Shown here: positions 44,408 to 60,918 of the stretch, one piece after another
Layout of the letters: the number at the start of each line of letters is the position of its first letter
How positions within the stretch are numbered: the stretch's first letter is position 1
IMG/VR virus record: IMGVR_UViG_3300036987_000310
Location: 64,001 to 128,000 of that record
Strand: one strand, 5' to 3'
Source: a virus
Taxonomy: Duplodnaviria; Caudoviricetes
DNA length: 64,000 nt
The notes under the pieces: model-generated
What the model saw: the letters and a program-made list of their open reading frames with translations, nothing else
Databases searched by the model: none
What the model was told of the DNA's origin: nothing
Program-made: the position numbers and the translations under genes

Positions 44408-44656
44408 TCAGATGTCCTCCCTTGGTAGGACAGCCAAGGTGACGTAGACGTCCGGGTGTTCGGTCGTGTCCTCGGGAGCATCAGACACCCGGACATGCCT
44501 GTTGTCGATCACCCAACAGCCCTTGATGCTCGGCAGAACAACACGGTCCCCAGGGTGCAAGGCGAGAGCCACTTGTGCATTCATCTCCGTTCTGCCGATA
44601 GTATCTCCATCCAGAAGAGCCCTTCGCAATTCAACACTCGCACGCATTGGCTTCAT
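44408..44656 (-). CDS. Hypothetical protein
   Basis: 82 aa, ATGA overlap with the deaminase gene. Confidence 0.45.
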   Translation of the reverse strand: MKPMRASVELRRALLDGDTIGRTEMNAQVALALHPGDRVVLPSIKGCWVIDNRHVRVSDAPEDTTEHPDVYVTLAVLPREDI

Positions 44657-45138
44657 GTCGACCCATTGTTTCGCATGTTGGTTTCGACCACTTCCTTGAC
44701 ACTGAAGATCTCAGGGCGGGGCTCAACCCGTCTAAAGTCTATGTCGCATTTGGAAATCAAATCCGGATCGAGAGGGATGCGGTATTGCTCATCAAACACA
44801 ATGGAGCGCACGCCAGAATTTATGAGCATCTTGAAACAGTTATAGCAAGGCGACAACGTCACATATGCCGTCGCCCCGTCAATGCAGGTTCCATGCTTCG
44901 CTGCTTGAGCCACAGCGTTAACTTCTGCGTGAATAGTTCTTATACACCCTCCGTCAGGGCCGATTTCACACCCGACGTCAGTGCAATGTGGCTGTCCGCG
45001 TATGGACCCGCCATAACCGGTCGACAAGATTGCTCTGTCGCGAACTATCACACATCCAACTTGTTTTCTGTTGCAGGTTGACCGCTCAGCGACTTCACGA
45101 GCTATCGACAGGAAATACTCGTCCCAGCTTTTTCGCAT
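44653..45138 (-). CDS. dCMP deaminase
   Basis: WDEYFLSIA..VAERSTC.RKQVGCVIV, STGYGG, HAEVNA, SPCYNC. Confidence 0.92.
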   Translation of the reverse strand: MRKSWDEYFLSIAREVAERSTCNRKQVGCVIVRDRAILSTGYGGSIRGQPHCTDVGCEIGPDGGCIRTIHAEVNAVAQAAKHGTCIDGATAYVTLSPCYNCFKMLINSGVRSIVFDEQYRIPLDPDLISKCDIDFRRVEPRPEIFSVKEVVETNMRNNGST

Positions 45139-45172: not shown

Positions 45173-45299
45173 TGGCGGGTGAAGGAATCGAACCTTCCTG
45201 GCGTGTGGGCACAAACGGCGTCTCCCTTTCGGGAGAGAGTGGAAAATGCCGGATTGTCTTCCTTTTGGTAGAAGCGGGATCCCAGATCCCTAACCCGCC
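45173..45299 (-). ncRNA. tRNA-like RNA 1 with module inserted in variable region (anticodon arm ambiguous)
   Basis: Acceptor GGCGGGT/ACCCGCC; D hairpin GGGATC-TGG-GATCCC; T arm GAAGG-TTCGATT-CCTTC; insert GGCAT..CCACTC-TCTCCC(GAAA)GGGAGA..GTGCC-CACACG. Confidence 0.75.
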
Positions 45300-45305
45300 T
45301 AATTG

Positions 45306-45434
45306 AAAACGCTCGAGTGTCGATGCCGGTTTTGGTGCACGAGGCAGGACTTGAACCTGCAACTTCCTGTTTCGTAGACAGACGCTCTACCTTTGAGCAA
45401 CTTGCGCTTGTTGGAACCGATGATTGAGCGTTTT
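45306..45434 (-). ncRNA. Module wrapped around tRNA-Arg(ACG)
   Basis: Terminal 9-bp stem AAAACGCTC/GAGCGTTTT; CGGTT/AACCG inner stem; CCAACAAG before and ACACTC after the tRNA. Confidence 0.7.
45333..45407 (-). tRNA. tRNA-Arg(ACG)
   Basis: GCGCAAG TT GCTC AAAGGTA GAGC G TCTGT CT-ACG-AA ACAGG AAGTT GCAGG TTCAAGT CCTGC CTCGTGC A CCA. Confidence 0.9.
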
Positions 45435-45435
45435 C

Positions 45436-45572
45436 GGAGCGGGACCCGGGAGTCGAACCCGGAAACTTGTGAGCAAGATTTGCGGCTTCCTTGCGAAAGC
45501 GAGGGGGCTTGCTGGTTGAGCATTGGCTCCACTGTGGAAAAGTGGTGAGGAACCGATCCTCTGTAGTCCCGC
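45436..45572 (-). ncRNA. tRNA-Gly(TCC)-like RNA 2 with ~65-nt variable-loop module
   Basis: Acceptor GCGGGAC/GTCCCGC + U discriminator (Gly-like); anticodon arm CCACT-TTTCCAC-AGTGG; insert AGCAAG-CCCCCTC-GCTTTC(GCAA)GGAAGC..CTTGCT-CACAAG; T arm CCGGG-TTCGACT-CCCGG. Confidence 0.82.
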
Positions 45573-45580
45573 GAAAGTTT

Positions 45581-45707
45581 GGACGTTCGAGTGGCGACGC
45601 TGATTTTTGGCTTGCAAAGCGGGACTTGAACCCACTACACCCAGCTTTTAAGGCTGATGCTCTACCCAATGAGCTATTTGCTTGTTAGAGCCGCTGTTTG
45701 AACGTCC
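45581..45707 (-). ncRNA. Module wrapped around a tRNA-like core with UAA anticodon
   Basis: Terminal 8-bp stem GGACGTTC/GAACGTCC; CTAACAAGC before and CCACTC after the core. Confidence 0.72.
45608..45683 (-). tRNA. Atypical tRNA, anticodon TAA (Leu) on a short-variable-loop body with 5-bp acceptor
   Basis: AAGCAAA TA GCTC ATTGGGTA GAGC A TCAGC CT-TAA-AA GCTGG GTGTA GTGGG TTCAAGT CCCGC TTTGCAA G CCA; pairs 1 and 2 of the acceptor are A-A mismatches. Confidence 0.65.
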
Positions 45708-45844
45708 TGGTGCAGGGCGAAGGAGTCGAACCTTCTTAGCTTGTGAGCACTTCGAATGCTCCTGGTGAGGGAGCGAGTGGAAACGCTGGAGACTTTTGTC
45801 GTCGTGTCCAAATCACGATGGGTGACCGTCACCCTGTGCCCTGC
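45708..45844 (-). ncRNA. tRNA(TTG, Gln)-like RNA 3 with variable-loop module
   Basis: Acceptor GCAGGGC/GCCCTGC-A-CCA; D hairpin GGGTGA-CGG-TCACCC; anticodon arm TCGTG-ATTTGGA-CACGA; insert CCACTC-GCTCC..GGAGC..GTGCT-CACAAG. Confidence 0.82.
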
Positions 45845-45852
45845 ATATTAAC

Positions 45853-46012
45853 CGCGTCCGAGTGGCAAATCTGTTTTACGCTTTTGACGATTTTCCTGTC
45901 GTTGCCTTTACCAGTTTGGCTACTCCCCCTAGTTTTTCCGTGGTGGGGGAGGCGGGAATCGAACCCGCATTGTGCTTTCGCACTTGCTTGTTAGATCAAC
46001 CGTATGGACGCG
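45853..46012 (-). ncRNA. Circularly permuted tRNA mimic with terminal module (YrlA/Y-RNA-like topology)
   Basis: 5'-CGCGTCC..CTAACAAGC, GTGC(GAAA)GCAC, T arm GCGGG-TTCGATT-CCCGC, CTCCCCC-ACCA, 11-nt linker, GGGGGAG, D arm GCC-AAACTGGTAA-AGGC, ..CCACTC-GGACGCG-3'. Confidence 0.78.
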
Positions 46013-46014
46013 AT

Positions 46015-46143
46015 TGGCGCCGGACCTTGGATTCGAACCAAGTTGCTTGTGAGCAGGACTTGAAGCTCCCTTGCGGGGGCGAGTTGGCCAGCTGGGCTTA
46101 GATCAGCTTAAGAGGCTGGTGGGGACCATCCCCAGTGTCCGGC
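46015..46143 (-). ncRNA. tRNA-Lys(CTT)-like RNA 5 with variable-loop module
   Basis: Acceptor GCCGGAC/GTCCGGC-G-CCA; D hairpin GGGGA-TGG-TCCCC; anticodon CAGC-CTCTTAA-GCTG; insert CAACTC-GCCCCC(GCAA)GGGAGC..CTGCT-CACAAG; T arm CTTGG-TTCGAAT-CCAAG. Confidence 0.82.
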
Positions 46144-46144
46144 A

Positions 46145-46221
46145 TGGTAACGGGGGCAGGATTTGAACCTGCGACCTTGAGGTTATGGGCCTCACGAGCT
46201 ACCAGACTGCTCTACCCCGCA
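46145..46221 (-). tRNA. tRNA-Met(CAT), initiator-like
   Basis: TGCGGGG..CCCCGTT-A-CCA with 1:72 mismatch; D stem GAGC/GCTC; anticodon TGAGG-CC-CAT-AA-CCTCA (C33, only two G-C pairs at the loop-proximal end). Confidence 0.9.
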
Positions 46222-46254
46222 TCGATGACGACATGAACTTTCAAAGAACGAGAA

Positions 46255-46390
46255 TGGGGGAGGGCGAAGGAGTCGAACCTTCTATGCTTGTTAGAATCGC
46301 TTGATGCTTTCGCACGGAAAGCGAGGGGCGAATCTGGAACGCAGTTGCGTCGGATTTACCGTCCGATTGGGCGCCGTGCCCAAGCCCTCC
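46255..46390 (-). ncRNA. tRNA-Tyr(GTA)-like RNA 6 with variable-loop module
   Basis: Acceptor GGAGGGC/GCCCTCC-C-CCA; anticodon TCGGA-CGGTAAA-TCCGA; insert GATTCGC-CCCTC-GCTTTC..GAAAGC-ATCAA-GCGATTC-TAACAAGC; T arm GAAGG-TTCGACT-CCTTC. Confidence 0.82.
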
Positions 46391-46398
46391 AAAACAAA

Positions 46399-46481
46399 AC
46401 GCTCGAGGTGAGATGCTTGGATTGACCCGCGCGCTTGGCGGGTCGAGCCTTCCAGCTTGTCAGCATCTCTGGATGAACGCT
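46399..46481 (-). ncRNA. Stand-alone module RNA (no tRNA parts)
   Basis: GCGTTC/GAGCGT outer stem; AGATGCT/AGCATCT inner stem; GACAAG, CACCTC; apical hairpin GACCCGC-CAAGC-GCGGGTC. Confidence 0.6.
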
Positions 46482-46736: not shown

Positions 46737-46984
46737 GAGTCTTGAACGTCCGAAATGTCAAGCAAAATTTTGGCGTTGTCCCTGAAATACTCTATGTCAG
46801 CCATCCTGGCTTCCAGCTCCCTCAACTGCCCCTCAATGGTGTCCACTTTTGCTCTCAGGACTTCAACCTCAGTGGTGTCAAATTTCGCCTCCATGGTTTC
46901 AAGAACTGGCGCAACAGATCTTTTAAACAATTTTATGGAACTGCGCGCTTGTTTGGAAGATGTTCGCTTCAACCGTTTCATCAC
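46733..46984 (-). CDS. Small coiled-coil protein
   Basis: VEVLRAKVDTIEGQLRELEARMADIE; coupled to the ThiF gene. Confidence 0.5.
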   Translation of the reverse strand: MMKRLKRTSSKQARSSIKLFKRSVAPVLETMEAKFDTTEVEVLRAKVDTIEGQLRELEARMADIEYFRDNAKILLDISDVQDS

Positions 46985-47553
46985 ACCCTCATGGCACCAG
47001 TGGGCGTGATTTGGAACCCGTGTTTTTCCCCGGAGTTTAGGAATTTTTGGGCTGCCGTGGCTATGTACGAAGCCACGGTTGCTATGAACGGAAGAAAGTC
47101 ACCATTCTCGCATGTTGCCCCTCCGGCTCCGTCTTCATCATCGATGACGAAATTTTCGCTCCAAATGACTCGCCCAAATTGTCCCCCGGCCGCCAACGTT
47201 CCGTGCAAACATGGAACGTTGGACTTGGAGAAGTTTTGAACGATTCTTCTGGCCTCTCCGTTGTCCAAACAGTCGATGATCAAGTCAGCGCCAGCCAACA
47301 GCTGGTCGTCGTTTTCCGACGACAGCTTGTGCGGAATGGACCCGATTTTGATTGCAAACAGAAACTGCATGAGCTGTTGAAGCGCAACAGTCTTGTTCTT
47401 CCCCACGGCATTTTGCGCATGGAACTGGGATGCTACGTTCTTGCGCTCGATTCTGTCGAAATCGATGACGTTGATTGTCGCTTCGCAGTTTCGGAGAAAA
47501 AGGGCCACGTGAGACCCGAGCGCTCCTACTCCGACGATTGTCACCTTCTTCAT
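46981..47553 (-). CDS. E1-like ThiF/MoeB adenylyltransferase
   Basis: VTIVGVGALGS, IDFDRIERKNVASQ, GKNK, IIDCLDNGEAR; candidate catalytic Cys in GGATCE; no CxxC Zn motifs. Confidence 0.9.
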   Translation of the reverse strand: MKKVTIVGVGALGSHVALFLRNCEATINVIDFDRIERKNVASQFHAQNAVGKNKTVALQQLMQFLFAIKIGSIPHKLSSENDDQLLAGADLIIDCLDNGEARRIVQNFSKSNVPCLHGTLAAGGQFGRVIWSENFVIDDEDGAGGATCENGDFLPFIATVASYIATAAQKFLNSGEKHGFQITPTGAMRV

Positions 47554-47561
47554 GTCATCCG

Positions 47562-47906
47562 TTACTTTTCGAGTTTGTCCATTTCCGCAGCATTCAAGAA
47601 GTCTTCGACGTCAGAAACCCCGTATTTGTCCTGCAAGACCGAGAGAATCCCAGCGTGCCGCATCTTTGCCTGTTCGAGCCGATCGTTTGCCGTGTCTTTT
47701 GTGATGAGCCCTGATGCCAAAGCATTGAATATGATAGACTTTTCGACCGTTTCATGCGCCTCAAGCTGTTGAAGAACAGCCTGTTCCGGCGTCAGGCTTG
47801 TGTCGGACTCGAACTTCATGCTCAAGAACTCGGATTGTTTTTCTCCGTTTCTGTTGACTTCCATGATTTTTGAAATTGAGAAGCTTTTAACAACTAGGGC
47901 CATCAC
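47562..47906 (-). CDS. Hypothetical protein
   Basis: 114 aa with strong SD GGAGGAG. Confidence 0.55.
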   Translation of the reverse strand: MMALVVKSFSISKIMEVNRNGEKQSEFLSMKFESDTSLTPEQAVLQQLEAHETVEKSIIFNALASGLITKDTANDRLEQAKMRHAGILSVLQDKYGVSDVEDFLNAAEMDKLEK

Positions 47907-48030
47907 TCCTCCTGAATTCCATGCCGCCCGTTTCTTCCCGTCTCAGAAAAACGTTCTCTAGAATTACATCTAGAATGTAGCGTGGTAGATCGTCAGTTAG
48001 TGGAGTTTGCAACTATCAAGCTTTGACCAG

Positions 48031-48246
48031 TTATTCTCCATGAACGGACTCCACGATTCTTGCAGTGGCTTCAGCAGCTTGGCCGTCGCTCCACCAGCCG
48101 TGACCATCAAAGTGCATGCCGCAATGATCGCGCTTCATCACGCACTTTCCACAGCCTTCCCACGGACCACAAACCTCACACCGTTCTTTTATTGGCAAAC
48201 ATGGAGTCGGGTCTGACGGGCGGTTTATCAAGTCCATCGTGGACAT
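48031..48246 (-). CDS. Small Cys/His-rich protein with tag-like C-terminus (VESVHGE)
   Basis: CEVCG...CGKC...HCGMH. Confidence 0.5.
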   Translation of the reverse strand: MSTMDLINRPSDPTPCLPIKERCEVCGPWEGCGKCVMKRDHCGMHFDGHGWWSDGQAAEATARIVESVHGE

Positions 48247-48255
48247 GCGACATGA

Positions 48256-48531
48256 TCACAAAATGCCGAATGGTGTCTTGGGGCGGCACTGTATGAGAGC
48301 CCAAGGACGCGTTTCATTGGGCTCAAACCTGTCCACTACGAAGTCTGTGAAATCCGCGCCCGGATCGGCAGAGATTCCCGGGACAGTTCCTGTTCGAACA
48401 GCTTCAGTAACCCATCGTTTGATGTCGACGTCCGCCGCATCCCGATTCACCGTGTCAGACAAGTCTCCATTCTGACCATTCCAAGTAACATTTACGCGTG
48501 CTTCTCCGATTTGAACGATTTCGTCTGCCAT
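48256..48531 (-). CDS. Ubiquitin-like (beta-grasp) protein with C-terminal PFG-IL
   Basis: Strand-strand-helix-strand-strand pattern (RVNVTW, QNGDL, DIKRWVTEAV, FVVDRF, LIQCRPK); DNA reads CCA TTC GGC ATT TTG TGA; lies between the E1 and JAB genes. Confidence 0.7.
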   Translation of the reverse strand: MADEIVQIGEARVNVTWNGQNGDLSDTVNRDAADVDIKRWVTEAVRTGTVPGISADPGADFTDFVVDRFEPNETRPWALIQCRPKTPFGIL

Positions 48532-48545
48532 TTGCGTCTCCTAAT

Positions 48546-48881
48546 TCAGGTTCTTTTGTTCTTGAACATCACCACTACTTCTTGAGCAAATCTTTCAGAG
48601 CTGAAGTCCGACAGCACTTCGCTCAATGCACGAAGAAATGCGACAATGTTGCGTTTTTCTTCCAAATCTCGTCTGGCGCGCTCTACTTTTTCAGCCCTGG
48701 TGTCGTTCAGGGTTCGGTAGTCGAAGAAAACTTCTTTGGCGAAGTGTTCGTGCCTAAGAATCTCATTTTCGGTATCCTTGACGGAGTTTTGAAAATGATC
48801 TAGCGCTGCGTTGACTATCCACTGAAAATGATGGTCTTGAAGTTTTGCCGCGATGCTTTTCAGATTTCCGAACTTATCCAT
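48546..48881 (-). CDS. Helical hypothetical protein
   Basis: 111 aa; TAAACT-N5-ATG upstream. Confidence 0.55.
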   Translation of the reverse strand: MDKFGNLKSIAAKLQDHHFQWIVNAALDHFQNSVKDTENEILRHEHFAKEVFFDYRTLNDTRAEKVERARRDLEEKRNIVAFLRALSEVLSDFSSERFAQEVVVMFKNKRT

Positions 48882-48889
48882 GCAACAGT

Positions 48890-49282
48890 TTACACGCGGG
48901 GCGGCCGAATTTCCGACAGCTCTCGAAGCTTATTGACCCAGTCAAACCCGAGGTTTGTCTTTTCTGCCGCCCCTTTATAGTCAAGCTTTTCCGGACCAGT
49001 CCACACTATGGTTGCCGCCATGTCGCTGGTGAAAATCCACCACACCAGTCTCTTCCCTAAAGCCGCTTCGATCGCGGCGAACGTGGTCAAATCAGTGTGA
49101 GACGGTTGTGGGACTCCAGAGCCCGGGTGGGTGTGTGCGAATCCAGCGACGGCGTCGCGGTTTCCCCAGATGACGTCCCACAAGCTTCTGCTGTCTGGCA
49201 AAGCGCCAACGTTCCTGTCGTTCGGAGCATGCCAGTACATGACTTTCCCGTCGTTGTTTACGACAGCCCCCGCTTCTTTCAT
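48890..49282 (-). CDS. JAB/MPN+ metallo-isopeptidase
   Basis: KEAGAVV (N-terminal Glu), GFAHTHPGSGVPQPSHTDL = HxH-x7-S-x2-D. Confidence 0.85.
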   Translation of the reverse strand: MKEAGAVVNNDGKVMYWHAPNDRNVGALPDSRSLWDVIWGNRDAVAGFAHTHPGSGVPQPSHTDLTTFAAIEAALGKRLVWWIFTSDMAATIVWTGPEKLDYKGAAEKTNLGFDWVNKLRELSEIRPPRV

Positions 49283-49701
49283 GACATCTCCATTCGCACT
49301 TGCATCAACAACTTCCCAAGCATGTTTTTTCCTTTGCCTGTCTTGGAGTCAACCCCCCAAAATTTGTCCCCCCATGAGTTTCCTTCAACAAGCTCGACGT
49401 CGCCTGTGTCAAGAAGCTGCTGACGAAGACCAGGGTCTGAGAATTTTTCTCGCAAAAGATCCAACATGACTCTGATTTTTACGTTCTCCCAATCTTTCCT
49501 GAGAGTCGCTCCTCGTCCGAGTTTTTTAGCTTCGCCTGCCGTTTTAGCCATCCTGATCTTTGACCGTTCGACAGGGCTGAGCGTTTTTGCTGCTTGGTAT
49601 GCATGCTCCACAGTTCGAAATGAGACGCCATCGTAAAAAACTCGACTGTCGTAAAAATTTGACAAAAACGCATGCTCGTTGAAAAACTTGTCGATTTTCA
49701 T
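49279..49701 (-). CDS. NADAR (YbiA-like) hydrolase
   Basis: FLSNFY, TVEHAYQAAK, AKKLGR, DWENVKIRVM...KF, LVEGNSWGDKFWG, GKNMLGKLLMQVR. Confidence 0.92.
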   Translation of the reverse strand: MKIDKFFNEHAFLSNFYDSRVFYDGVSFRTVEHAYQAAKTLSPVERSKIRMAKTAGEAKKLGRGATLRKDWENVKIRVMLDLLREKFSDPGLRQQLLDTGDVELVEGNSWGDKFWGVDSKTGKGKNMLGKLLMQVRMEMS

Positions 49702-49889
49702 TGGCTCATGACTTCCATGACTGGATGACGACTAATGCACACCCAACAAACGCGTTGCCCATCAATATTTCCGCTCTGGACTCTTCCAGAGTGCATATGA
49801 CTTTTCGGAAGCCACCACATGCGAATCTTCTTACACCTAGGGCATCTTTTGTGCCTCGGACGCTTTCTGTTCTTCGCTCGCTTCTTCAT
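49698..49889 (-). CDS. Basic Zn-finger protein with C-terminal tag (VMEVMSQ)
   Basis: CPRC...CWVC. Confidence 0.55.
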   Translation of the reverse strand: MKKRAKNRKRPRHKRCPRCKKIRMWWLPKSHMHSGRVQSGNIDGQRVCWVCISRHPVMEVMSQ

Positions 49890-49895
49890 CTGCGC

Positions 49896-50168
49896 TTACT
49901 TATCTTCTGGTTCATTCATGGGCACATATGGCTCGTATCCTTCTCGCCTGTTGTGCTCCTGCATGGCTTCCACCCAAGAGCCTGCCTCAAATTCATATAG
50001 CAGTTCTGACTCCGGACTCATGAAGCCCTGTTCAATCATCTTTTTAGCGTTTTCCTCGGTCGTGAGCTGGACGCCGCCTTCCTCCCCGTCCAAAGCATAG
50101 ATAAAGTTGTGGCAGACGAACTTGACTAGCCCTTTGGCGTTGTGCGGCCAGTATGGGACGTCGGACAT
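49896..50168 (-). CDS. Acidic hypothetical protein
   Basis: 90-aa ORF in a coupled run. Confidence 0.5.
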   Translation of the reverse strand: MSDVPYWPHNAKGLVKFVCHNFIYALDGEEGGVQLTTEENAKKMIEQGFMSPESELLYEFEAGSWVEAMQEHNRREGYEPYVPMNEPEDK

Positions 50169-50234
50169 TGCTTTAGCTTTCTTTACATGTCGACATGTTC
50201 ATTTCGCCGACGCTACAAACATCGTTAAGTTGGT

Positions 50235-50540
50235 TCATGACGACTGCACCTCGTCGACTACAATTAGATTCATGGCGTCTTTAACCGACACCTCGACAAG
50301 AGCTTTCCAGATTGTTGCATTAATCACCACGCGTGTTTTATGCTCTTCGCACCGAAACACGGTTAGCGTGCCTCCGGGGCGAAGAAAAGCACGCGTTGCT
50401 GGTTTTCCGCACTTAACGCCAGCGCGCGATCCGCTTTTTTTGTGCGGAAAATGGCCACAAACCGGCAATTTCACCGCCCTATGACTTTTACGACCTGTCA
50501 CTCGACTTCCTCGAATGCTCCTAAAGCGTTCCTTTTCCAT
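50235..50540 (-). CDS. Cys/His protein with C-terminal tag (VDEVQSS)
   Basis: VCGH...KCGKPA...RCEEH. Confidence 0.5.
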   Translation of the reverse strand: MEKERFRSIRGSRVTGRKSHRAVKLPVCGHFPHKKSGSRAGVKCGKPATRAFLRPGGTLTVFRCEEHKTRVVINATIWKALVEVSVKDAMNLIVVDEVQSS

Positions 50541-50725
50541 TCGCGGCCTAAATCTTTAGATACGATTCTCACTATATCTTTGTGGTCGTGTTCTATATCC
50601 GAAAGCCAAACATCAACCTGGTATTCGGAATCGACGCGAACGCTTCCGGCGTGGGTGGGGCCGCCCGGCCCGTGCTTTTCGCCTGGCCCGGCCGGGGTGT
50701 CGTCATGGAGCTCAAGTTCGATCAT
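50498..50725 (-). CDS. Small acidic hypothetical protein
   Basis: 75-aa ORF. Confidence 0.4.
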   Translation of the reverse strand: MIELELHDDTPAGPGEKHGPGGPTHAGSVRVDSEYQVDVWLSDIEHDHKDIVRIVSKDLGREWKRNALGAFEEVE

Positions 50726-50918
50726 TGGATTTCGCTTTCAACCAACTTTCAGCTTCGTCGCCGATTCCTTGTTTTCTCGCCCATTCTTTTAAACTTTGAT
50801 CGGTTCCAGACTTCTTCCAACGTCGAACCATGCTGCGCCGCGCCTTTTTCCCGATGCCCTTATACCCTTCATTCATTGCGCCCTCACACGGGTGGTTGCC
50901 AGCAAAAGTGCTGGCCGA

Positions 50919-51167
50919 TCATGACCTCGAAGAGTGTGGACCGTGAACTGCGGAGTTCACGACTTCACCTCCGCTGCTGAATGGCGTCGAGTTATACCTG
51001 ACAACGCCGTTTGCATCTGAGAATTTGTGAACGGTGAACGAGCTCGTGTTTTCCAGAGCTTCTTTCACCTTGTCCACTGTGGACCCGATTTCGCCGGATA
51101 TCTCTTCAAGAGTCCCAGCGCCGTGGAAACAAAAATGTTTGCGCAGTTTAATTTCCAAGTCTTTCAT
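50919..51167 (-). CDS. Small HTH-like protein
   Basis: GTLEEISGEIGSTVDKVKEALE resembles an HTH. Confidence 0.45.
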   Translation of the reverse strand: MKDLEIKLRKHFCFHGAGTLEEISGEIGSTVDKVKEALENTSSFTVHKFSDANGVVRYNSTPFSSGGEVVNSAVHGPHSSRS

Positions 51168-51168
51168 T

Positions 51169-51471
51169 TCAACAGTCCTTTGGAAGCCTGTTTAAAATCT
51201 CATCCAGAGAGCGGTTTAGCTCTTGGACCCTGTCTTCCAAGGTCTCGTTCAAAAGATGTTGCTCAATCGCCCCAGCCACAGCTGGCTTTTCACATATTTT
51301 TTCAAATCTTTCAAAGTCTGCAATAATGTTTTTGAAAAGATTTGAAACTGCAGTGTTTCGGGCTTTCCCTTGCAACTTTTTCAGACCTTCAAATTCGGAT
51401 CGATACTGACTAGAATTTTTCCAAGTTATGCTTTCGTTGACGTCTTTAATCCACATGGCGATACACCACAA
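51169..51471 (-). CDS. Coiled-coil hypothetical protein
   Basis: 100 aa; LEDRVQELNRSLDEIL. Confidence 0.45.
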   Translation of the reverse strand: MWCIAMWIKDVNESITWKNSSQYRSEFEGLKKLQGKARNTAVSNLFKNIIADFERFEKICEKPAVAGAIEQHLLNETLEDRVQELNRSLDEILNRLPKDC

Positions 51472-52387
51472 GCTTTCCGAGCTTCTCAGCTTCTCGAATC
51501 ACAGCCGGCAAAGACTCTAGCGTGAAGTACGTGTCCCCTCGCTCGTTAGTGTCATGATCTGTTAAGCAAATGCCGGCATCGACTATTTGCAAAGTCATGG
51601 CATCGCAGGTGCACTCAAATCGACGCCGATCCAAGCGAAACTTCACTACCATTTCAGCTCGGTGAATCGCCCGCCTATGATCAAGGTATATAGCACCACC
51701 AACGGCCAGAGCGGCTCTTGCCGCCTCTCCGAAATCGTGCTGGGCCATTTGGCGCCTTCCAACCCCATCCCCGAGTTTTTCGATGAGCTGCAATCGGCGT
51801 TCTTCCAAACGTCGACGCTCTTCTTCTTCCAAACGCCTACGCTCTGCCTCAACCCGCCTACGCTCTGCCTCAACCCGCTGCCACGTTTCCATTCGAAACG
51901 CTGCGTCTAAAGCAGGAGCCACGCCCGGAACGTCATCGACTGACAACTTCTCGTCCAGGTATGCTTGGAGCACGTCGTCCTCGGGTCCGAGGGGCATCTC
52001 CTGACACTTGTACACCAGAGGCCCGCCCTCATGGGTTCGACCTGACGAAATGCGAACGAAGCGGTCAAGGCCTGGCTCTATGAGCCAGACGCGCTCCGAG
52101 TGACTAGTTATTTTGGCCGGGTCGGAATCGACTCTCGCGTCATCTGCCACAAGCCGGTCTCCAACCAGATACCCGCAAACAAGATATTTCAGAAGATCCG
52201 GAACCGGATCTGTTTGCGCAAACAGCTTAGCTTTCCTTCCAGAAATCGAAAAAATGTTCCACCCGTGCTCTTCCGGAAGCTTCCCGTCCAGGGACCAAGC
52301 TCGAGGCCCTGATCGCAGAGACCTACCTCCAATCCAAGGGAGTGTTATGGTTTCATCTCCTGACTGAAGAAGGTCGCGCCAGCCCAT
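51446..52387 (-). CDS. Putative E2 (UBC-like) domain protein with N-terminal domain and charged coiled-coil linker
   Basis: C-terminal strands then LQIVDAGICLT (cf. E2 active site GxICL) then helix FTLESLPAVIREA; ERR-rich linker with a 21-bp tandem duplication at 51834-51875. Confidence 0.5.
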   Translation of the reverse strand: MGWRDLLQSGDETITLPWIGGRSLRSGPRAWSLDGKLPEEHGWNIFSISGRKAKLFAQTDPVPDLLKYLVCGYLVGDRLVADDARVDSDPAKITSHSERVWLIEPGLDRFVRISSGRTHEGGPLVYKCQEMPLGPEDDVLQAYLDEKLSVDDVPGVAPALDAAFRMETWQRVEAERRRVEAERRRLEEEERRRLEERRLQLIEKLGDGVGRRQMAQHDFGEAARAALAVGGAIYLDHRRAIHRAEMVVKFRLDRRRFECTCDAMTLQIVDAGICLTDHDTNERGDTYFTLESLPAVIREAEKLGKLVVYRHVD

Positions 52388-52422: not shown

Positions 52423-52902
52423 CTATGAGTTCATTATGTCCGGGACAAGCTTTTCTCGTTCAATTAACCCCTCGCATCTGTTTGCTGGATCGGGAAACAG
52501 CGGAGTACACCCGAGCCCTGTGTACTCATGGAAGCAAACCATGACTTTCGGCAATGCGGAGTACGTAACTTTCAAACCGTTTCCACCGTTTGCTTTTAAG
52601 TTTGGATGAGTGCACTGAGTCCCTTCGCGATTCATGCAGTTTCCGCACAAAAGCATGAATTTCCCGGGGCCGCCGCGCCCCCACGGGATTTCTCTGTACA
52701 ATCTCTCATGATCGTTTATGACTTTCTCACATGCCTTGCTTCTGCAGGTCACGAGAATCTTTTCGGGGTCGATGCTGTCATCTTCTCTGCATTCCCACCA
52801 CATAGTGAACTCGCAAATGTCATCTTTTTCAAATCCGCACAGCTGACATCGTTTAAAAACGCTTAGCGGAAGCGCGCCATCGGACAGACTTTCCATCACC
52901 AC
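52423..52902 (-). CDS. Cys-rich protein with C-terminal tag (VPDIMNS)
   Basis: CQLCG, CRSKAC, LCGNC, CTH. Confidence 0.6.
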   Translation of the reverse strand: MVMESLSDGALPLSVFKRCQLCGFEKDDICEFTMWWECREDDSIDPEKILVTCRSKACEKVINDHERLYREIPWGRGGPGKFMLLCGNCMNREGTQCTHPNLKANGGNGLKVTYSALPKVMVCFHEYTGLGCTPLFPDPANRCEGLIEREKLVPDIMNS

Positions 52903-52948
52903 TCCTTTTCACATATCCGTCGAGCAATGACATTGGCGAACCTTCGGG

Positions 52949-53401
52949 TCATTTGTGGCAACAAAAACCTTTATCGTCGCCATAGTGCCCACAATGCCGC
53001 AAAGTTGTGCACACTACCCACACCTGACGAACAACCTGATACTTCTTGTTCGTCACATCGATCAAACACGGAACTTCGTCAGCCGTTAAGTTACCGCGGC
53101 AGTCCACATTCGCTCCGTAGATATGCCCTTCGTTGCCGCTGGCCATCCACAGCACTCGGTGCGCGTAATCGTAAGCATTGTCGACGCTCCAATACATGCA
53201 CACGGGATCGCCAGGAGCCCATCGGGTCATTCTATCGAGGCGCTCACCTTGACTGTTTAGACCGACTCCGCACGACATCGGGTCGACAATCGTGGACACG
53301 GCGTCCATCAGTTGGTCTTGGTTTTCTCCAAACCCGAACAAAATCAAGACGGATGCCCAAAACATCACGCTCGCCCCCGATTTTCTTCTGATTCTAACCA
53401 T
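52949..53401 (-). CDS. Exported/membrane Cys-rich hypothetical protein
   Basis: N-terminal hydrophobic segment VMFWASVLILFGF; 150 aa. Confidence 0.4.
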   Translation of the reverse strand: MVRIRRKSGASVMFWASVLILFGFGENQDQLMDAVSTIVDPMSCGVGLNSQGERLDRMTRWAPGDPVCMYWSVDNAYDYAHRVLWMASGNEGHIYGANVDCRGNLTADEVPCLIDVTNKKYQVVRQVWVVCTTLRHCGHYGDDKGFCCHK

Positions 53402-54330
53402 TCTTCAGAGCTTGCCTGTCGGGAATCGTCGTCCACAGCTTTCAAAACTTCCATCGGGTCTATCTCGTCCAGCATCTTCACCCGAACTTTTTTCCTCGTC
53501 TCGTTCAAAACTTTGGTGGACGGGCAAAAGCAATCGTCGAGCTTTTTCTTAGCCGAGACAATTGCTTGAACGCTTTCCGACATTTCTGTCGTCGATTTGG
53601 CAGTCGGAACCACAGCCATTCTCACCCGCCTTGCGTCGTCTGTTAGCTTGAGATAGTCGGAGCTCACTTTTTCCATACTCCGGTTTTCTTCGGTGAGAAA
53701 ATCTCTCGTGTTTACATAAACTATCGAGAACCATGCGGCGATGATGACAATGGATGCCAAAACTCCCCAAAAGAACATGGAGCCATGGCTCCATCCGATG
53801 GACAAAAGATACAAAGCTGTTGGCAATAAGCCCAACCACGAGATTGTCATGATGCCGCCTCTGGCATACTTGTTTATCGAGCGTCGATCTTTGAGCTTGT
53901 CGCTAAGCTCTGACGCGGTTTCCGCCAGAGCTCCAGTTTCGGACTCCAACTCTCTCAGATATGCGACGTATGCCAGTTTGCGCTCTCTGTTGGGCTTTTC
54001 AGCGTTCAATTTTTCCAATGCTTCCGCCTGGCATTTTTTGCCGAGCTCTTCTTCCACCTCTTTCCTTATTTGCGGTTTTAGTTCTTTTCTTACCTCTGGG
54101 ATAACTTCTTCCTTAACAGAAGCTTTCAACCCTTCGGAAACGATTGCAAGAAACCTCTTGTCTTCCCTTAGGTTTTTTTCGATCACAGCCCTCAAACGGT
54201 TTTGTTCTACGAGGCTGCTTCTGAGCTGAACATAGTCGCTGCGAGTCAGCTTATACTTTTTAGCTTCTTCAAGTTCACGAACAGTGAGCTGCTGGATTTC
54301 GTTATTGATTTGCGATCCGTTCAGTGCCAT
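53365..54330 (-). CDS. Two-TM membrane protein with N-terminal coiled coil
   Basis: TM1 GIMTISWLGLLPTALYLLSI, TM2 FFWGVLASIVIIAAWFSIVYV, followed by a helical cytoplasmic tail. Confidence 0.65.
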   Translation of the reverse strand: MALNGSQINNEIQQLTVRELEEAKKYKLTRSDYVQLRSSLVEQNRLRAVIEKNLREDKRFLAIVSEGLKASVKEEVIPEVRKELKPQIRKEVEEELGKKCQAEALEKLNAEKPNRERKLAYVAYLRELESETGALAETASELSDKLKDRRSINKYARGGIMTISWLGLLPTALYLLSIGWSHGSMFFWGVLASIVIIAAWFSIVYVNTRDFLTEENRSMEKVSSDYLKLTDDARRVRMAVVPTAKSTTEMSESVQAIVSAKKKLDDCFCPSTKVLNETRKKVRVKMLDEIDPMEVLKAVDDDSRQASSEEWLESEENRGRA

Positions 54331-54334
54331 GGCT

Positions 54335-54667
54335 TCACAACCTGTGACCGAATGTTTTTTCCGTCATTAAATTTGTTACCAGCGCAGCATTGCAGTCTTC
54401 GGGCGTTCCAGAGTTTTCAAGGTCCCCGCGTTCCGGGGTTTTGCATACGTGGTTGCCGGTGCGACTGCAGATGGTCCACGTTTCGCTACCGCATACTGAG
54501 CACTGCCACAACTTCGTGTCGTTATGCAAAACTTTGACGAAACGCCAATCGTGTTTTGTTTTGATTTCTTCGTAAGAAATGGGAACGACGACCTCTTGAG
54601 CCTCTCCGTCCTGTTCAAAGTTCAGGAGAGCATCATATCTGTTCAAGAGGTCGTCGTGTTTGGTCAT
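54335..54667 (-). CDS. Zn-ribbon protein
   Basis: WQCSVCG...ICSRTGNHVC...DCNAALVTNLMTE; ATGA overlap with the vWA gene stop. Confidence 0.55.
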   Translation of the reverse strand: MTKHDDLLNRYDALLNFEQDGEAQEVVVPISYEEIKTKHDWRFVKVLHNDTKLWQCSVCGSETWTICSRTGNHVCKTPERGDLENSGTPEDCNAALVTNLMTEKTFGHRL

Positions 54668-56550
54668 GCGGCCCAAGTGGGTTTGCAGAGAAGATCTTGC
54701 TTCAATATGGTATCAACGAGCGTGACGCGCGGAACCGCGACAGCCCGAGCCGTCGCGCCGACTGGAGTTGCTGCGACGAGCGCACGAATCGTACGAGGAA
54801 TCGCGTACGGATCTGCGAATGTTGCTTCGTCAATCATGAAGCATGGAATCCCGAGTCGGGCCGCGGTGTCGCGAACTGCGGACCCATACCCTCCTAAGTT
54901 GACGACTCCGTACATCATGCCTCCTCCAACCTTCACAAAGCCGAAAGCCATGGGGCGAAGTTCGGACGTGTTGACGTCATTCTCAAACGACGACGCTTGT
55001 TCATCTCCAACAAAGATGAACAAGCTGTCTTCGTCGTCGCCAGGCTTGTGGGCCTTCAAGGCGCGGATCCCGGCTCCATAGTCGGTTCCGCCTCCAGCGC
55101 GAATGCCCTTGAAGGCGTTCTCCACTCCAGCTGCAGAGGGGTGGCGGATCTGAAGCTCGCGCCCCTGCGTGTTGAAAATGGACACGTGCACTTTGTCCGG
55201 CGGGAACCCCTGAAGGAATTTTGCGACGTGAGATTTGGCAGCCTCAATCGCATTTTCCATCGACCCAGAGACGTCCACCATGAAGTACACGCGCATGCCC
55301 TTCATAGTTTCTTCGACCGCCTTTTGCAGAGCCCCGTCGGCTGCTTCTTGCAGCTTTTCCTGAGTCTCCTTAGACTTGACGCGGTTGGCGATGTTGGCCG
55401 CCCGCATGTCTTCAGCGTTTTTGACAGCTTTGTTCCACCTGTCTTTGACGTCTTGGACCTCTAGCAGCCCAAGCTCCTCGAGAGTCGGCGTGTAGATGAT
55501 CAAGTCCTTGTCGGACAGAGACTTGGCTTCAATTGCTGCGGCCATGACGGCGCGCGTGACCCCGACCTCTTTCGGAAGAAGTCCGACGACCCGCTTGAAA
55601 TTCGGCTTTTCACGAACGATCTTTTCGCAGATCTGTTCTTCCGTCATTCCTTCCCAAGTTTCGGCTGCAGCCATTTCCTGACCGATTGCGAGCTGGCGCC
55701 TGCCGTCTTTTGCCTGCGCCTGCTTCCAGCGCAGAATCTCAAAGAATTTCGTCGTTTCAGGCTTATATCCGACGCAACGCGAAAGCTCCATGACAGTGGA
55801 TCGGAAGCCTGCTTTCACGAGGCCTTCGAGAAGCTTCGTGTTCTGCTCTCGATGTCTCAGCCACTTCTCCACGGCCTTGTCCCATCGGCCGTAAAATGGC
55901 CGACGAGCTGACCTCCCAAATCCAAGCTCGCGATTGACAGCCGCCACCCCTGGAAGGGAAAGCAGATCGTGGACGCGCAAGAGAAGCTTCGGATTGAAGT
56001 CCTTTCCGTCCTTGCGAGAAAGAAGAAGCATGGCCTCGCCAACGTCACGATAGTCTTCATCGTAAAATGCGACTTTTCCGCCGTCGACAACCGAGTCCCC
56101 CTTGCGGGACTGGCACAGCATGAACGCAGCCAGAACAACTTTCAAGTCGCGATGCTCCTGACCGAAAGCATACGACGCCCACCGAGCTGCGAATTCGTTG
56201 TCGAGCTTCCAGACTTCGGCGACTTGCGTGTACATCCAAACTGCCACTTCCGGAAACAGGCCGGCCGGCCTATACTCCCCAACGATGTTCGCGCCTTCTT
56301 TCACTTTCCCATCATCTTGAAGAACGCCTAGACGAGTGCGCACAGACTTCTTTCCCTGCTTGGAAAGCTTGTACACAATTTTTTGCTTCGGATCGCCTTC
56401 TTCTTTGTGGGTGACAGGTTCCCATCTGACGCCGACGTTGAAACGGTTATCGGCGACTACGATGCCAGGGCGGTTGTGGACCGCGTGGTCCGTGTAGCCG
56501 AGAAGCGTTTGAATAATTCTCTCTGCCGGTCCTAGATTTTCTTTGTCCAT
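54664..56550 (-). CDS. Ro60/TROVE-like protein: helical N-terminal region + C-terminal vWA domain
   Basis: MIDAS VDVSGSM...GGTDY...VGDE; about 400-aa basic helical N-terminal region as in the TROVE+vWA architecture; lies between rtcB and the Y-like RNA array. The vWA call is firm; TROVE is inferred. Confidence 0.65.
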   Translation of the reverse strand: MDKENLGPAERIIQTLLGYTDHAVHNRPGIVVADNRFNVGVRWEPVTHKEEGDPKQKIVYKLSKQGKKSVRTRLGVLQDDGKVKEGANIVGEYRPAGLFPEVAVWMYTQVAEVWKLDNEFAARWASYAFGQEHRDLKVVLAAFMLCQSRKGDSVVDGGKVAFYDEDYRDVGEAMLLLSRKDGKDFNPKLLLRVHDLLSLPGVAAVNRELGFGRSARRPFYGRWDKAVEKWLRHREQNTKLLEGLVKAGFRSTVMELSRCVGYKPETTKFFEILRWKQAQAKDGRRQLAIGQEMAAAETWEGMTEEQICEKIVREKPNFKRVVGLLPKEVGVTRAVMAAAIEAKSLSDKDLIIYTPTLEELGLLEVQDVKDRWNKAVKNAEDMRAANIANRVKSKETQEKLQEAADGALQKAVEETMKGMRVYFMVDVSGSMENAIEAAKSHVAKFLQGFPPDKVHVSIFNTQGRELQIRHPSAAGVENAFKGIRAGGGTDYGAGIRALKAHKPGDDEDSLFIFVGDEQASSFENDVNTSELRPMAFGFVKVGGGMMYGVVNLGGYGSAVRDTAARLGIPCFMIDEATFADPYAIPRTIRALVAATPVGATARAVAVPRVTLVDTILKQDLLCKPTWAA

Positions 56551-57832: not shown

Positions 57833-58291
57833 TCAGTCCTCCATCGTCACAACGACCAGTCGCATGTTGACCAACGCTGTGATTTGATCTATCGTCATTC
57901 CTGAATCGAATGCTTCGTCAATGGATTTTGTCAACGTTGACAAAATTTGTTGCTGAGTTTTCGGAGCAAATGCGAAAACTGGGTTGTTATCGATTCCCAT
58001 AATCCACGAGTGTTGTGACAACACATCTTCTCGTATCCTTGCATCCGTCAAAGGCTCAATTTTCCACCAAGCTCCGTGGAGCTTTACGGATTCGCCATGG
58101 GGGCGCATCCCAGTGTGATGCGACGTCATGGGCGCCGCAATCCATAGGACCGTCGGCCCTTCGTTCATCACCGTCGCATTCCAGTCACGGAACTCCACTG
58201 GATCGAGGTCAGCAACTTCGTAGTTTTCTTCCCACCATTTTGGAATGGATTGGGATGGCAAACTGTGCAAGAAGCGTTGGGAGCTGCTCAT
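57833..58291 (-). CDS. Hypothetical protein
   Basis: 152 aa, ATGA-coupled; ends VVVTMED. Confidence 0.55.
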   Translation of the reverse strand: MSSSQRFLHSLPSQSIPKWWEENYEVADLDPVEFRDWNATVMNEGPTVLWIAAPMTSHHTGMRPHGESVKLHGAWWKIEPLTDARIREDVLSQHSWIMGIDNNPVFAFAPKTQQQILSTLTKSIDEAFDSGMTIDQITALVNMRLVVVTMED

Positions 58292-59079
58292 TGCACGACC
58301 TCTTTTAGTTTTGAATACAGAACCTTTGGGTCAGTGCGGGATAGACCAGACATTTGCCCATCGTTCAGTTCAATCACGATCCATTTGCCAGACTGTGTTC
58401 TGGCAACATCCACAACGTAAAACCTGGCAGAGTCCCCAATCCTAGTGATGACTTCTTGAAGAAACGAGGCCGGAACCGAGCTCGGGTCAGGACAACCGCC
58501 CGGGATGTCGTCTTCATAATTTGACCAGTAAAACCCGCCACACAAAACTTGTTTGTCGCAAACGAAAAACCTATATTCTTCAGCCACAGGCATTCCTTGA
58601 AGCCCATCCATCAATTTAACAAGCGGAACATACTCGCGTGCATAAATGTGTTGATCGCATATAAGGCCGTCGTCCATGAGGCGGCATGCAACTTCAACAG
58701 CGTCCCGCTTGCTTTGCGCAAACATGTGGGTTTTCCATTGGAACTTTTTCGAATTCGTGGCACCTTTGACAACAAACGGACCCGCGTTGTCAGGAATGTC
58801 CTGAAGCCGCCTCCAAGTGCGGGGCGTCAAATCGCCCAAATCGTCCACCCAGTTCCCCAAGTCAGCAATATATGAATGTTGTCGAAAGCTGTTGATGAGC
58901 TTGGATCCGAAGTCATCCAGCTCTTGCTCCAGCTCGCGGTAAAATGGCAAAACGCTGTACCTTCCAATCACCAACGATTCTCGGGGAATGCGAGACCGCA
59001 GTTCCACAAGTTTGAAGTGGGGCGCAACTGCGGCCGTTTCTTCAGGGCACATGCCCCGAGCAAGCACTATCGATTGCAT
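58288..59079 (-). CDS. ATP-grasp protein (R2K-clade-like)
   Basis: LVIGRYSVLPFY, FVVKGATNSKK, YAREYV, EEYRFFV, FYVVDVA...WIVIELNDGQMSG (E-x-N). Start re-assigned to ATG 59079. Confidence 0.8.
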   Translation of the reverse strand: MQSIVLARGMCPEETAAVAPHFKLVELRSRIPRESLVIGRYSVLPFYRELEQELDDFGSKLINSFRQHSYIADLGNWVDDLGDLTPRTWRRLQDIPDNAGPFVVKGATNSKKFQWKTHMFAQSKRDAVEVACRLMDDGLICDQHIYAREYVPLVKLMDGLQGMPVAEEYRFFVCDKQVLCGGFYWSNYEDDIPGGCPDPSSVPASFLQEVITRIGDSARFYVVDVARTQSGKWIVIELNDGQMSGLSRTDPKVLYSKLKEVVQ

Positions 59080-59153
59080 AACAACAATTACAGCAAAGAC
59101 AGCTACCACCGATATGCGTCGCTGGTCGGCGAGGGCAACTCTAATCAGCCCCT

Positions 59154-59405
59154 TCAAATCATTCCAGGCTCGTGCCACCGGTCGTTTTCGTTGTCCCAAT
59201 GCCGGACGTCATATAAATTGATGTCGAACATCAGGTATGCTACCTGCCACGACAGATCGATGCCCGCATGGTCGCCCTTGGTGGAAGCGCGAAACCGGAG
59301 GTATAGGTCCGGTGCGTGCTCCGGCCACCAGCTGAGTTGTGCTGACAAGGATTTGTGCCTCGTCAACTCCAAGTCGAGACACAGGTCGCGATTCTTGCGC
59401 AGCAT
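59154..59405 (-). CDS. Hypothetical protein
   Basis: 83 aa; DHAGIDL...NLYDVRHWD. Confidence 0.55.
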   Translation of the reverse strand: MLRKNRDLCLDLELTRHKSLSAQLSWWPEHAPDLYLRFRASTKGDHAGIDLSWQVAYLMFDINLYDVRHWDNENDRWHEPGMI

Positions 59406-59406
59406 C

Positions 59407-60816: not shown

Positions 60817-60918
60817 GTTATTTTCTTTCAAGAGCTCGTTCAAGTAGCTGTCGGATCAGAGTTGGTCAATTACACCTCGTAAAAGTATGAAACTCACACG
60901 AACGATGTAAACTTCGGC

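Follow-up and report, generated by a model that had tools for sequence, protein, structure and literature searches.

A conserved jumbo-phage gene cassette that looks like a ubiquitin-like protein activation system with two additional obligatory partners

The DNA considered here, referred to as the window, is a stretch of 64,000 nucleotides corresponding to bases 64001-128000 of the virus record IMGVR_UViG_3300036987_000310, a 376,674-bp genome whose direct terminal repeats identify it as that of a complete jumbo phage. A sequence-only reading of the window had proposed that four co-oriented genes lying within about 5.4 kb encode a phage-borne ubiquitin-like conjugation set, and both the four open reading frames (ORFs), with their motifs, and the phage origin have been borne out, the positions of the motifs being verified codon by codon. 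All the cassette genes discussed lie on the minus strand of the window. Read along that strand, they encode a 628-residue protein with a helical N-terminal domain and a C-terminal vWA domain (54664-56550), a 313-residue protein with a cysteine in a DAGICL motif (51446-52387), a JAB/MPN+ metalloprotease of 130 residues with the signature HTH-x7-S-x2-D (48890-49282), a ubiquitin-like protein (Ubl) of 91 residues, predicted to be a beta-grasp protein and ending in PKTPFG-IL (48256-48531), and an E1-like adenylating enzyme of the ThiF/MoeB class, made of only 190 residues (46981-47553).

Related loci were collected by searching IMG/VR with the E1 and with an alignment of the Ubl, and species-representative genomes with the Ubl alignment, and gene order was then read from tblastn comparisons of all window proteins with 47 viral loci and 21 loci from metagenome-assembled genomes (MAGs), 68 in all. 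The order vWA protein, 313-residue protein, JAB, Ubl and E1, fixed and on one strand, was found in 47/47 viral and 21/21 MAG loci, the exceptions being losses at contig ends, losses of JAB, one locus in which JAB follows the Ubl (L078) and one in which the 313-residue homolog is too diverged for tblastn (L082). In L054, all five follow one another directly, with some overlaps, in a span of 4.1 kb. The same set is kept by L082, the most diverged of the loci (about 40% identity), and by two independently fetched diverged members. Apart from ORFs of 54 and 63 residues present in a few loci, the other ORFs of the window do not recur among the 68, and the gene for the 313-residue protein, unlike that for JAB, is never lost. 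The conserved unit is a cassette of five genes, consisting of a core of four (vWA protein, 313-residue protein, Ubl and E1) and an accessory JAB. The span first proposed was too narrow, since the conserved set reaches the vWA gene; its four named genes belong to the set, a fifth conserved gene had been overlooked, and a NADAR-family gene and the small ORFs enclosed within the span are variable inserts. The set is far beyond chance: the Ubl family counts 113 close homologs, the 313-residue family more than 1,179 proteins, and the order is kept in 68 loci. The cassette is widespread, and nearly identical copies of it turn up in metagenomes of groundwater, coal, soil and wetland sampled in a number of studies; the region was found in none of the RNA runs. 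Its sole relative in GenBank is Virus Rctr197k (L014, KX853510.1), where it lies between two tRNA arrays. In that record (183293-186183) the gene for the 313-residue protein is unannotated, an opposite-strand ORF being annotated instead, and the vWA gene appears only as a misc_feature.

Searches of Pfam, NCBIfam, PHROGs, PADLOC and the sequences of the PDB give no match for the Ubl, whose close homologs are all located on metagenomic or phage contigs, and in terms of sequence it represents a new family. Its AlphaFold2 (AF2) model, with a predicted local distance difference test (pLDDT) value of 88.6, displays the beta-beta-alpha-beta-beta order of the beta-grasp fold and lies near the BilA_UBL_2 clusters (TM score 0.49), and on the basis of this model the predicted fold is accepted here. 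The end RPKTPFG is invariant in every homolog, including F88 and G89 (the codon of Gly89 being 48265-48267). What comes after it varies, from 0 to about 73 residues: the protein may stop there, run on for one or several unrelated residues, or carry a longer tail, and many of the long tails are rich in CxxC and zinc-ribbon-like. The initial description of a beta-grasp-like protein with a tail after Gly therefore stands, and the mature Ubl is predicted to end at Gly89, with Ile90-Leu91 as a removable tail. In many homologs, such as proteins P0008, P0031, P0055, P0059, P0073, P0110 and P0113, the invariant Gly is followed by Cys-rich, zinc-ribbon-like or acidic tails of 12-73 residues, fusions that are reminiscent of the ubiquitin-ribosomal protein fusion precursors. 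A Cys-rich ORF of 71 residues just downstream of the Ubl gene in the window (48031-48246, minus strand) was also considered as a homolog of the zinc-ribbon tails, a relationship that proved unsupported (best E value 0.013).

JAB matches the Pfam family Prok-JAB with 22 bits (E 1.6e-4), just under the cut-off of 25, and one relative carries a precomputed weak match to the same family; PADLOC JAB models match it at E 0.008 or weaker, and the tail JAB family phrog_5556 does so weakly (E 1e-3). The catalytic signature is intact, as had been read from the window, with Glu3, His50, His52, Ser61 and Asp64 (E...HxH-x7-S-xx-D) invariant in 37 homologs. JAB is missing in nine loci, all of them from MAGs, and in 9/9 of these the Ubl gene stops directly after the Gly, as compared with 10/59 loci that carry JAB (Fisher p 1.9e-6; in these counts by locus, entries marked NA were read by eye). 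When the vWA protein is placed on a quick maximum-likelihood tree, the JAB-less loci occupy five or more positions with separate support, each beside JAB-bearing relatives. A protein search for JAB anywhere in five JAB-less MAGs gave nothing, and as a control 5/5 JAB-bearing MAGs gave one match each, located at the cassette. Because JAB has been lost repeatedly, and only where the Ubl already ends at Gly, it is most likely the enzyme that trims the tail of the Ubl, with a predicted cut after Gly89, so that the trimming originally postulated has gained strong comparative support. Loss confined to loci in which trimming is needless is what a maturation protease predicts, and it argues against JAB serving mainly to deconjugate the conjugates of host defence systems.

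The E1 matches Pfam ThiF (PF00899) with 87.4 bits (cut-off 28.1), as well as NCBIfam ThiF/MoeB models. Invariant in 29 homologs are the GxGxxG loop (residues 8-13; G8, G10 and G13), D94, C95, D97, R102 and the triad T147-C148-E149, and nearly so (at least 90% of the 29 sequences) is N98, the last residue of the acidic motif DCLDN (94-98). Cys148 is the cysteine of GGATCE and is encoded at 47110-47112. A phmmer search of the PDB with the single sequence gave no match at E 1e-8, and a profile was needed: that of the E1 homologs has E. coli MoeB as its best match (1JW9, E 1.5e-16), followed by Uba4, ThiF, TcdA (E 4e-11), the SUMO E1, UBA5 and Cap2 (7TSX, E 5e-7). The profile alignment pairs T147-C148 with T186-C187 of MoeB, and MoeB Cys187 corresponds in position to ThiF Cys184, within the crossover loop that houses the catalytic cysteines of E1s, so that the identification of a ThiF-type E1 with a candidate catalytic Cys is upheld. 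The structural zinc site of MoeB, which does not define the superfamily, has no counterpart, since its CYRC motif aligns to residues other than Cys and the phage E1 ends before the second motif; zinc CxxC motifs, a ubiquitin-fold domain (UFD) and a separate Cys domain are all missing from the protein. Because the zinc motif of MoeB is not represented, the E1 can be described, on the evidence of its alignment, as a stripped-down adenylation domain with a single conserved loop Cys. PADLOC models of the E1-E2 proteins of CBASS (cyclic oligonucleotide-based antiphage signaling system) match only its residues 2-130, corresponding to the Rossmann domain (E 2e-12). At 190 residues, it is the smallest E1 among those compared in this analysis.

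The AF2 model of the 313-residue protein (pLDDT 83.7) consists of three parts. The N-terminus is made of tandem OB-like small beta-barrels (about residues 9-140), similar to the tandem OB domains found in RNase II/R and in Mpa/ARC; the middle is a highly charged helix of ~50 residues (158-206); and the C-terminal alpha/beta domain (213-307) contains a helix, four strands, a loop with Cys274 and a further helix. A profile of this last domain matches 393 cluster representatives at 50% identity, and three proteins among the AlphaFold Database (AFDB) clusters share the full-length architecture (A0A455T162, A0A6M3LCW8 and A0A497SA29, E 5e-13 to 8e-8). Cys274 (codon 51566-51568) lies within G-[IV]-C-L in the loop after the fourth strand in 128/128 representatives. 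Two other cysteines near it are present in 124 and 67 of the 128, and both are lost in L082, which keeps Cys274. The invariance of this residue, when its neighboring cysteines vary or are lost, suggests that it functions as a single Cys and speaks against a zinc site. The HPN motif found upstream of the Cys in eukaryotic E2s is absent from the alignment, and PADLOC contains no model that matches the protein. The 313-residue protein is a candidate Cys carrier, with a possible E2-like role, or else a client of the Ubl.

As for the fifth protein, the vWA domain (VWA_2, 35 bits) is found in 25/25 homologs, and D426, S428 and S430 of its metal ion-dependent adhesion site (MIDAS; D426-x-S428-x-S430) are invariant. 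The Pfam TROVE profile has no match in this protein, in 24 of its relatives or in the whole phage genome, and phmmer finds no match for it in the PDB. Alignment with hhalign to three bacterial TROVE+vWA proteins gave a probability of 81.5% (E 1.1e-5), collinear over 226-520, a stretch that includes the vWA part, and a feature search in Atlas returned TROVE/DUF2828 at 0.86, which is a lead only. It is plausible, from these alignments, that the protein is a diverged Ro60/TROVE-like RNA-binding protein.

In the window, tRNA genes lie just downstream of the cassette (45333-46221), in agreement with the adjacency noted at the outset, and ARAGORN and Rfam together report only three tRNAs in 45173-46481 (minus strand). 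Over 43-64 kb Rfam detects no Y RNA; apart from tRNAs, its one match there is a weak permuted-tmRNA/tRNA-like one at 45921-45968, which at 31 bits does not reach the threshold. Among the related loci, 52/68 have tRNA genes within 10 kb, in 39 they are found within 1 kb of the cassette ends, and 16/68 have none within 10 kb. The nearby tRNAs are on the strand of the cassette in 614 of 638 cases, essentially none being inside it, so that the cassette usually sits inside same-strand tRNA arrays. In one related phage, the tRNA array that follows the cassette has a predicted tmRNA gene at its end (L039:16148-16508). Upstream of the vWA gene in the window, at 58288-60843 (minus strand), are found genes for an RtcB RNA ligase (276 bits), 3 kb away, and for an ATP-grasp protein of the R2K clade; a linkage between RtcB and the cassette was considered and rejected, RtcB being within 10 kb in only 4/68 loci. 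Neither a PP-loop thiolase (PF01171) nor a cysteine desulfurase (PF00266) was found in the 377-kb genome, rhodanese not having been searched for and host enzymes being possible.

The five proteins could be integrated into a phage-borne system for the maturation, activation and transfer of the Ubl, a reading that is adopted here tentatively and with a confidence somewhat below an even chance. In a first step, as the losses of JAB strongly suggest, JAB would cut off the residues past Gly89 of the Ubl (here Ile-Leu). The E1, judging from its family and its alignment, would then bind ATP and adenylate Gly89, and may subsequently hold the Ubl on Cys148. The activated Ubl might next be handed to Cys274 of the 313-residue protein, in which case that protein would serve as an E2-like carrier, or a ligase, of an unconventional kind. 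Finally, and speculatively, the Ubl would be joined to a target bound by, or including, the 313-residue (tandem OB) and vWA/Ro60-like proteins, the target probably being, in the same speculative vein, a ribonucleoprotein serving the phage tRNA or tRNA-like RNA genes around the cassette. Counted in favor of this scheme, besides the identities of the genes, the Gly end and tails of the Ubl, the fixed gene order, the pattern of JAB losses and the invariant Cys274, are the penultimate residue of the mature Ubl, which is Phe and not Gly, and the lack of a detected PP-loop thiolase or desulfurase in the genome.

A number of observations weigh against the proposed system. Pfam identifies no family in the 313-residue protein at E up to 1 and none in 36 isolated C-terminal domains at E up to 10, the E2/UBC, Prok-E2, RWD and UEV profiles included. 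A profile search of the PDB with the family yields no E2, Foldseek comparison of the model with the PDB, the AFDB clusters and Swiss-Prot gives no E2 among the matches listed, and Atlas, interrogated by features and by shape, places no E2 on top. The sequence-only reading had regarded this protein as a putative E2, and fold searches of the kind it suggested rank no E2 at the top. What survives of that proposal is the invariant Cys, the secondary-structure order and the synteny; because no search identifies an E2, an E2-like role would rest on these features, the order of secondary structure being a permissive topology, and not on homology. A complex prediction of the 313-residue protein with Ubl(1-89), scoring 0.46 versus 0.50 for the control, gives no verdict and is not evidence either way. 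Furthermore, the E1 is closest to the sulfur-carrier E1s MoeB, Uba4 and ThiF, and it has neither the UFD nor the Cys domain through which canonical E1s load an E2. The SAMP, Urm1 and TtuB systems, with E1s of this same class, conjugate without an E2, and the link of the vWA and 313-residue proteins to the Ubl and the E1 rests on synteny within one phage clade. It is conceivable, although somewhat unlikely, that the cassette works in the manner of SAMP, Urm1 or TtuB, the E1 alone activating the Ubl for direct conjugation. The 313-residue and vWA proteins would then not be enzymes but substrates, receptors or clients that bind RNA; the MIDAS of the vWA protein might, for instance, bind the Ubl, and Cys274 might be a modified or regulatory residue. 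Besides the profile of the E1 and the missing E2 signature, the RNase II/R- and Mpa/ARC-like N-terminus of the 313-residue protein and the collinearity of the vWA protein with TROVE+vWA proteins would suit such an E2-independent scheme. However, the invariance of Cys274 in the 128 representatives, with neighbors that vary, is easier to reconcile with catalysis than with a role as substrate site, and the gene for the 313-residue protein is never lost, whereas that for JAB is.

The class of the E1, with its Cys equivalent to ThiF Cys184/MoeB Cys187, and the failure to recognize an E2 are also compatible with a sulfur relay, an explanation considered unlikely, in which the E1 would adenylate the Ubl and a persulfide, from the host or on Cys274, would convert it into a thiocarboxylate able to thiolate phage tRNAs or another metabolite, JAB only maturing the precursor. 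Such a relay would account for the embedding of most relatives' cassettes in tRNA arrays, and trimming of sulfur carriers by JAB proteins is known for QbsE/QbsD and CysO/Mec. Nevertheless, the Ubl ends in Pro-Phe-Gly and not in the Gly-Gly that, to our knowledge, is common to the sulfur carriers ThiS, MoaD, Urm1, SAMPs, TtuB, CysO and QbsE; the families PF01171 and PF00266 were not found in the 377-kb genome; the long tails past the Gly, including the zinc-ribbon-like ones, resemble ubiquitin precursors; and 16 of the 68 loci have no tRNA nearby. As between protein conjugation and a sulfur relay, the latter is weakened by the PFG end, the fusion-type precursors and the sulfur enzymes not found; the MoeB class of the E1 and the setting among tRNA genes speak for it. 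The phage origin, the match of CBASS models to the Rossmann domain of the E1 (and to this part only) and the resemblance of the Ubl model to BilA_UBL_2 clusters could alternatively indicate counter-defence, the phage E1, JAB or Ubl disturbing host Ubl-based immunity (CBASS Cap2/Cap3, Bil or Bub) by deconjugation or as a decoy. This is improbable, since JAB has been lost repeatedly and only where the phage's own Ubl needs no trimming, which suggests a role in the maturation of that Ubl, and since those defense systems have nothing that corresponds to the vWA and 313-residue partners or to the tRNA context. Slightly less probable still is inherited synteny without a common function, in which the vWA and 313-residue proteins would form an RNA-repair module with the Ubl, E1 and JAB as unrelated neighbors, or in which the E1 would act on tRNA like TcdA, one of its profile matches (E 4e-11). 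All the loci do come from a single phage clade, their proteins being 38-70% identical, but these genes keep their order and strand in 68 loci, the most diverged included, where all other genes in and around the cassette have been replaced; moreover, the overlaps in compact loci are operon-like, and a Ubl that invariably ends its conserved part in Gly requires a partner that adenylates it.

Within the proposed maturation, activation and transfer system, a more particular possibility is that the Ubl is not a general protein tag and is coupled to an RNA-surveillance particle. Phage or host RNAs that resemble tRNAs would be trapped by a ring of the Ro60-like vWA protein together with the tandem-OB Cys protein, and one of the components of this particle, or even the RNA itself, would receive the Ubl; Ubl-Gly-AMP is, in chemical terms, an aminoacyl-adenylate. 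This idea is quite doubtful as it stands; if it were true, a ubiquitin-like mark would be at work in tRNA or Y-RNA biology during phage infection.

Among the systems closest to the cassette are archaeal SAMP/UbaA/HvJAMM1, Thermus TtuB/TtuC and yeast Urm1/Uba4, in which an E1 of the MoeB class likewise activates a small beta-grasp protein at its C-terminal Gly. A JAMM/JAB protease is part of SAMP and of the Thermus system, as it is of the phage cassette, and the SAMP, TtuB and Urm1 systems are E2-independent, also carry sulfur and are tied to tRNA biology. In contrast to them, the phage Ubl belongs to an unrelated sequence family and ends in Pro-Phe-Gly instead of Gly-Gly, the E1 has only 190 residues and neither a zinc motif nor a rhodanese domain, and the set is phage-encoded, with two obligatory extra partners (the vWA protein and the 313-residue Cys protein) and no thiolase or desulfurase found in the genome. 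The antiphage system Bil (BilABCD) shares the combination of Ubl, E1, JAB and Cys carrier, and its JAB exposes the C-terminal Gly of the Ubl. However, a recognizable BilB-type E2 is missing from the cassette, its E1 is less than half the size, and it lies on a phage, within tRNA arrays and with vWA and OB-fold partners, rather than in a host defense island. Type II CBASS (Cap2/Cap3) has in common with it the similarity of the E1 Rossmann domain (PADLOC E 2e-12; 7TSX E 5e-7) and a JAB partner, but Cap2 conjugates the cGAS-like enzyme itself, no free Ubl being involved, and has a fused and recognizable E2 domain, whereas the phage E1 matches the Rossmann part only. The Bub pathways are reported to comprise diverged E1, E2 and Ubl proteins, an E1 without canonical features, a Ser-His protease that generates the functional Ubl and oxyester intermediates (Ye et al. 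2024, PMC11601596). The cassette differs in that both its candidate carriers have an invariant Cys and its protease is a JAB, and the relation in sequence is that of the E1 fold only.

Outside defense and sulfur transfer, the tail assembly clusters of lambda and T1 contain a Ubl, TAPI, and a JAB, TAPK, with a conserved C-terminal Gly and a predicted JAB cleavage (Iyer et al. 2006, PMC1779556). This pair lacks an E1, is found in tail gene clusters and has its JAB fused to NlpC/P60 (PMC1779556), whereas the cassette has an E1 and no structural-gene context. With modules of Ro60, Y RNA and RtcB, the cassette would share a helical N-terminal domain and a MIDAS-containing vWA domain collinear with TROVE proteins, as well as tRNA-like RNAs downstream; it departs from them in that the TROVE profile is not matched and RtcB is near in so few loci. 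ROT/TROVE proteins occur in some jumbo phages, according to a survey in which no E1, JAB or Ubl is mentioned (PMC7824862), and no Ro60 module was found in the literature reported together with any of these. The full-text literature, with subscription journals outside coverage, likewise contained no phage set of Ubl, E1 and JAB, nor one tied to vWA/TROVE proteins or tRNA arrays.

The cassette looks like an undescribed phage-borne Ubl system whose Ubl family and obligatory partners are new. Bacterial systems composed of Ubl, E1, E2 and JAB are known so far as host antiphage defenses (CBASS, Bil, Bub) or as sulfur relays, and the sole phage pair of Ubl and JAB found described is the E1-less one of tail assembly; here, a virus would itself carry the means of activating a Ubl. 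A Ro60-like vWA protein and an OB/coiled-coil/Cys protein as obligatory partners have no precedent that could be found in Ubl pathways. With only four to five proteins, the system would offer a compact means of asking how minimal E1s hand on a Ubl, and it opens the questions of whether E2 function can be built on a non-UBC scaffold and whether phage Ubl chemistry acts on the translation or RNA-repair apparatus.

The spaces between the core genes of the window are occupied by variable inserts, all on the minus strand. From the E1 to the Ubl, an ORF of 114 residues and the Cys-rich one of 71 residues (47562-48246) have no tblastn match in the 68 related loci and no family match, and the same lack of matches in related loci is seen for an ORF of 111 residues between the Ubl and JAB (48546-48881). 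The region from JAB to the gene for the 313-residue protein (49279-51471) contains the NADAR gene and about seven small ORFs (49698-51471), absent from nearly all related loci, and from there to the vWA gene are found ORFs of 159, 321 and 113 residues (52423-54676), again non-recurring, the two flanking core genes abutting in most relatives. The NADAR-family gene (49279-49701, minus strand; Pfam 100.5 bits, phrog_1017) is not present in the related cassettes, and it is an insert that lies outside the system. Beyond the RNA array, at 44653-45138 (minus strand), is an ORF similar to dCMP/cytidine deaminases, a homolog of which is located between the Ubl and the E1 in several relatives (L022, L033, L034). 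Finally, the MAG contigs with the cassette (L062-L082) are mostly labelled as Myxococcota (Polyangia, Sandaracinaceae, Kofleriaceae, Sorangium), which hints at the host range of this phage clade, or at mis-binning.

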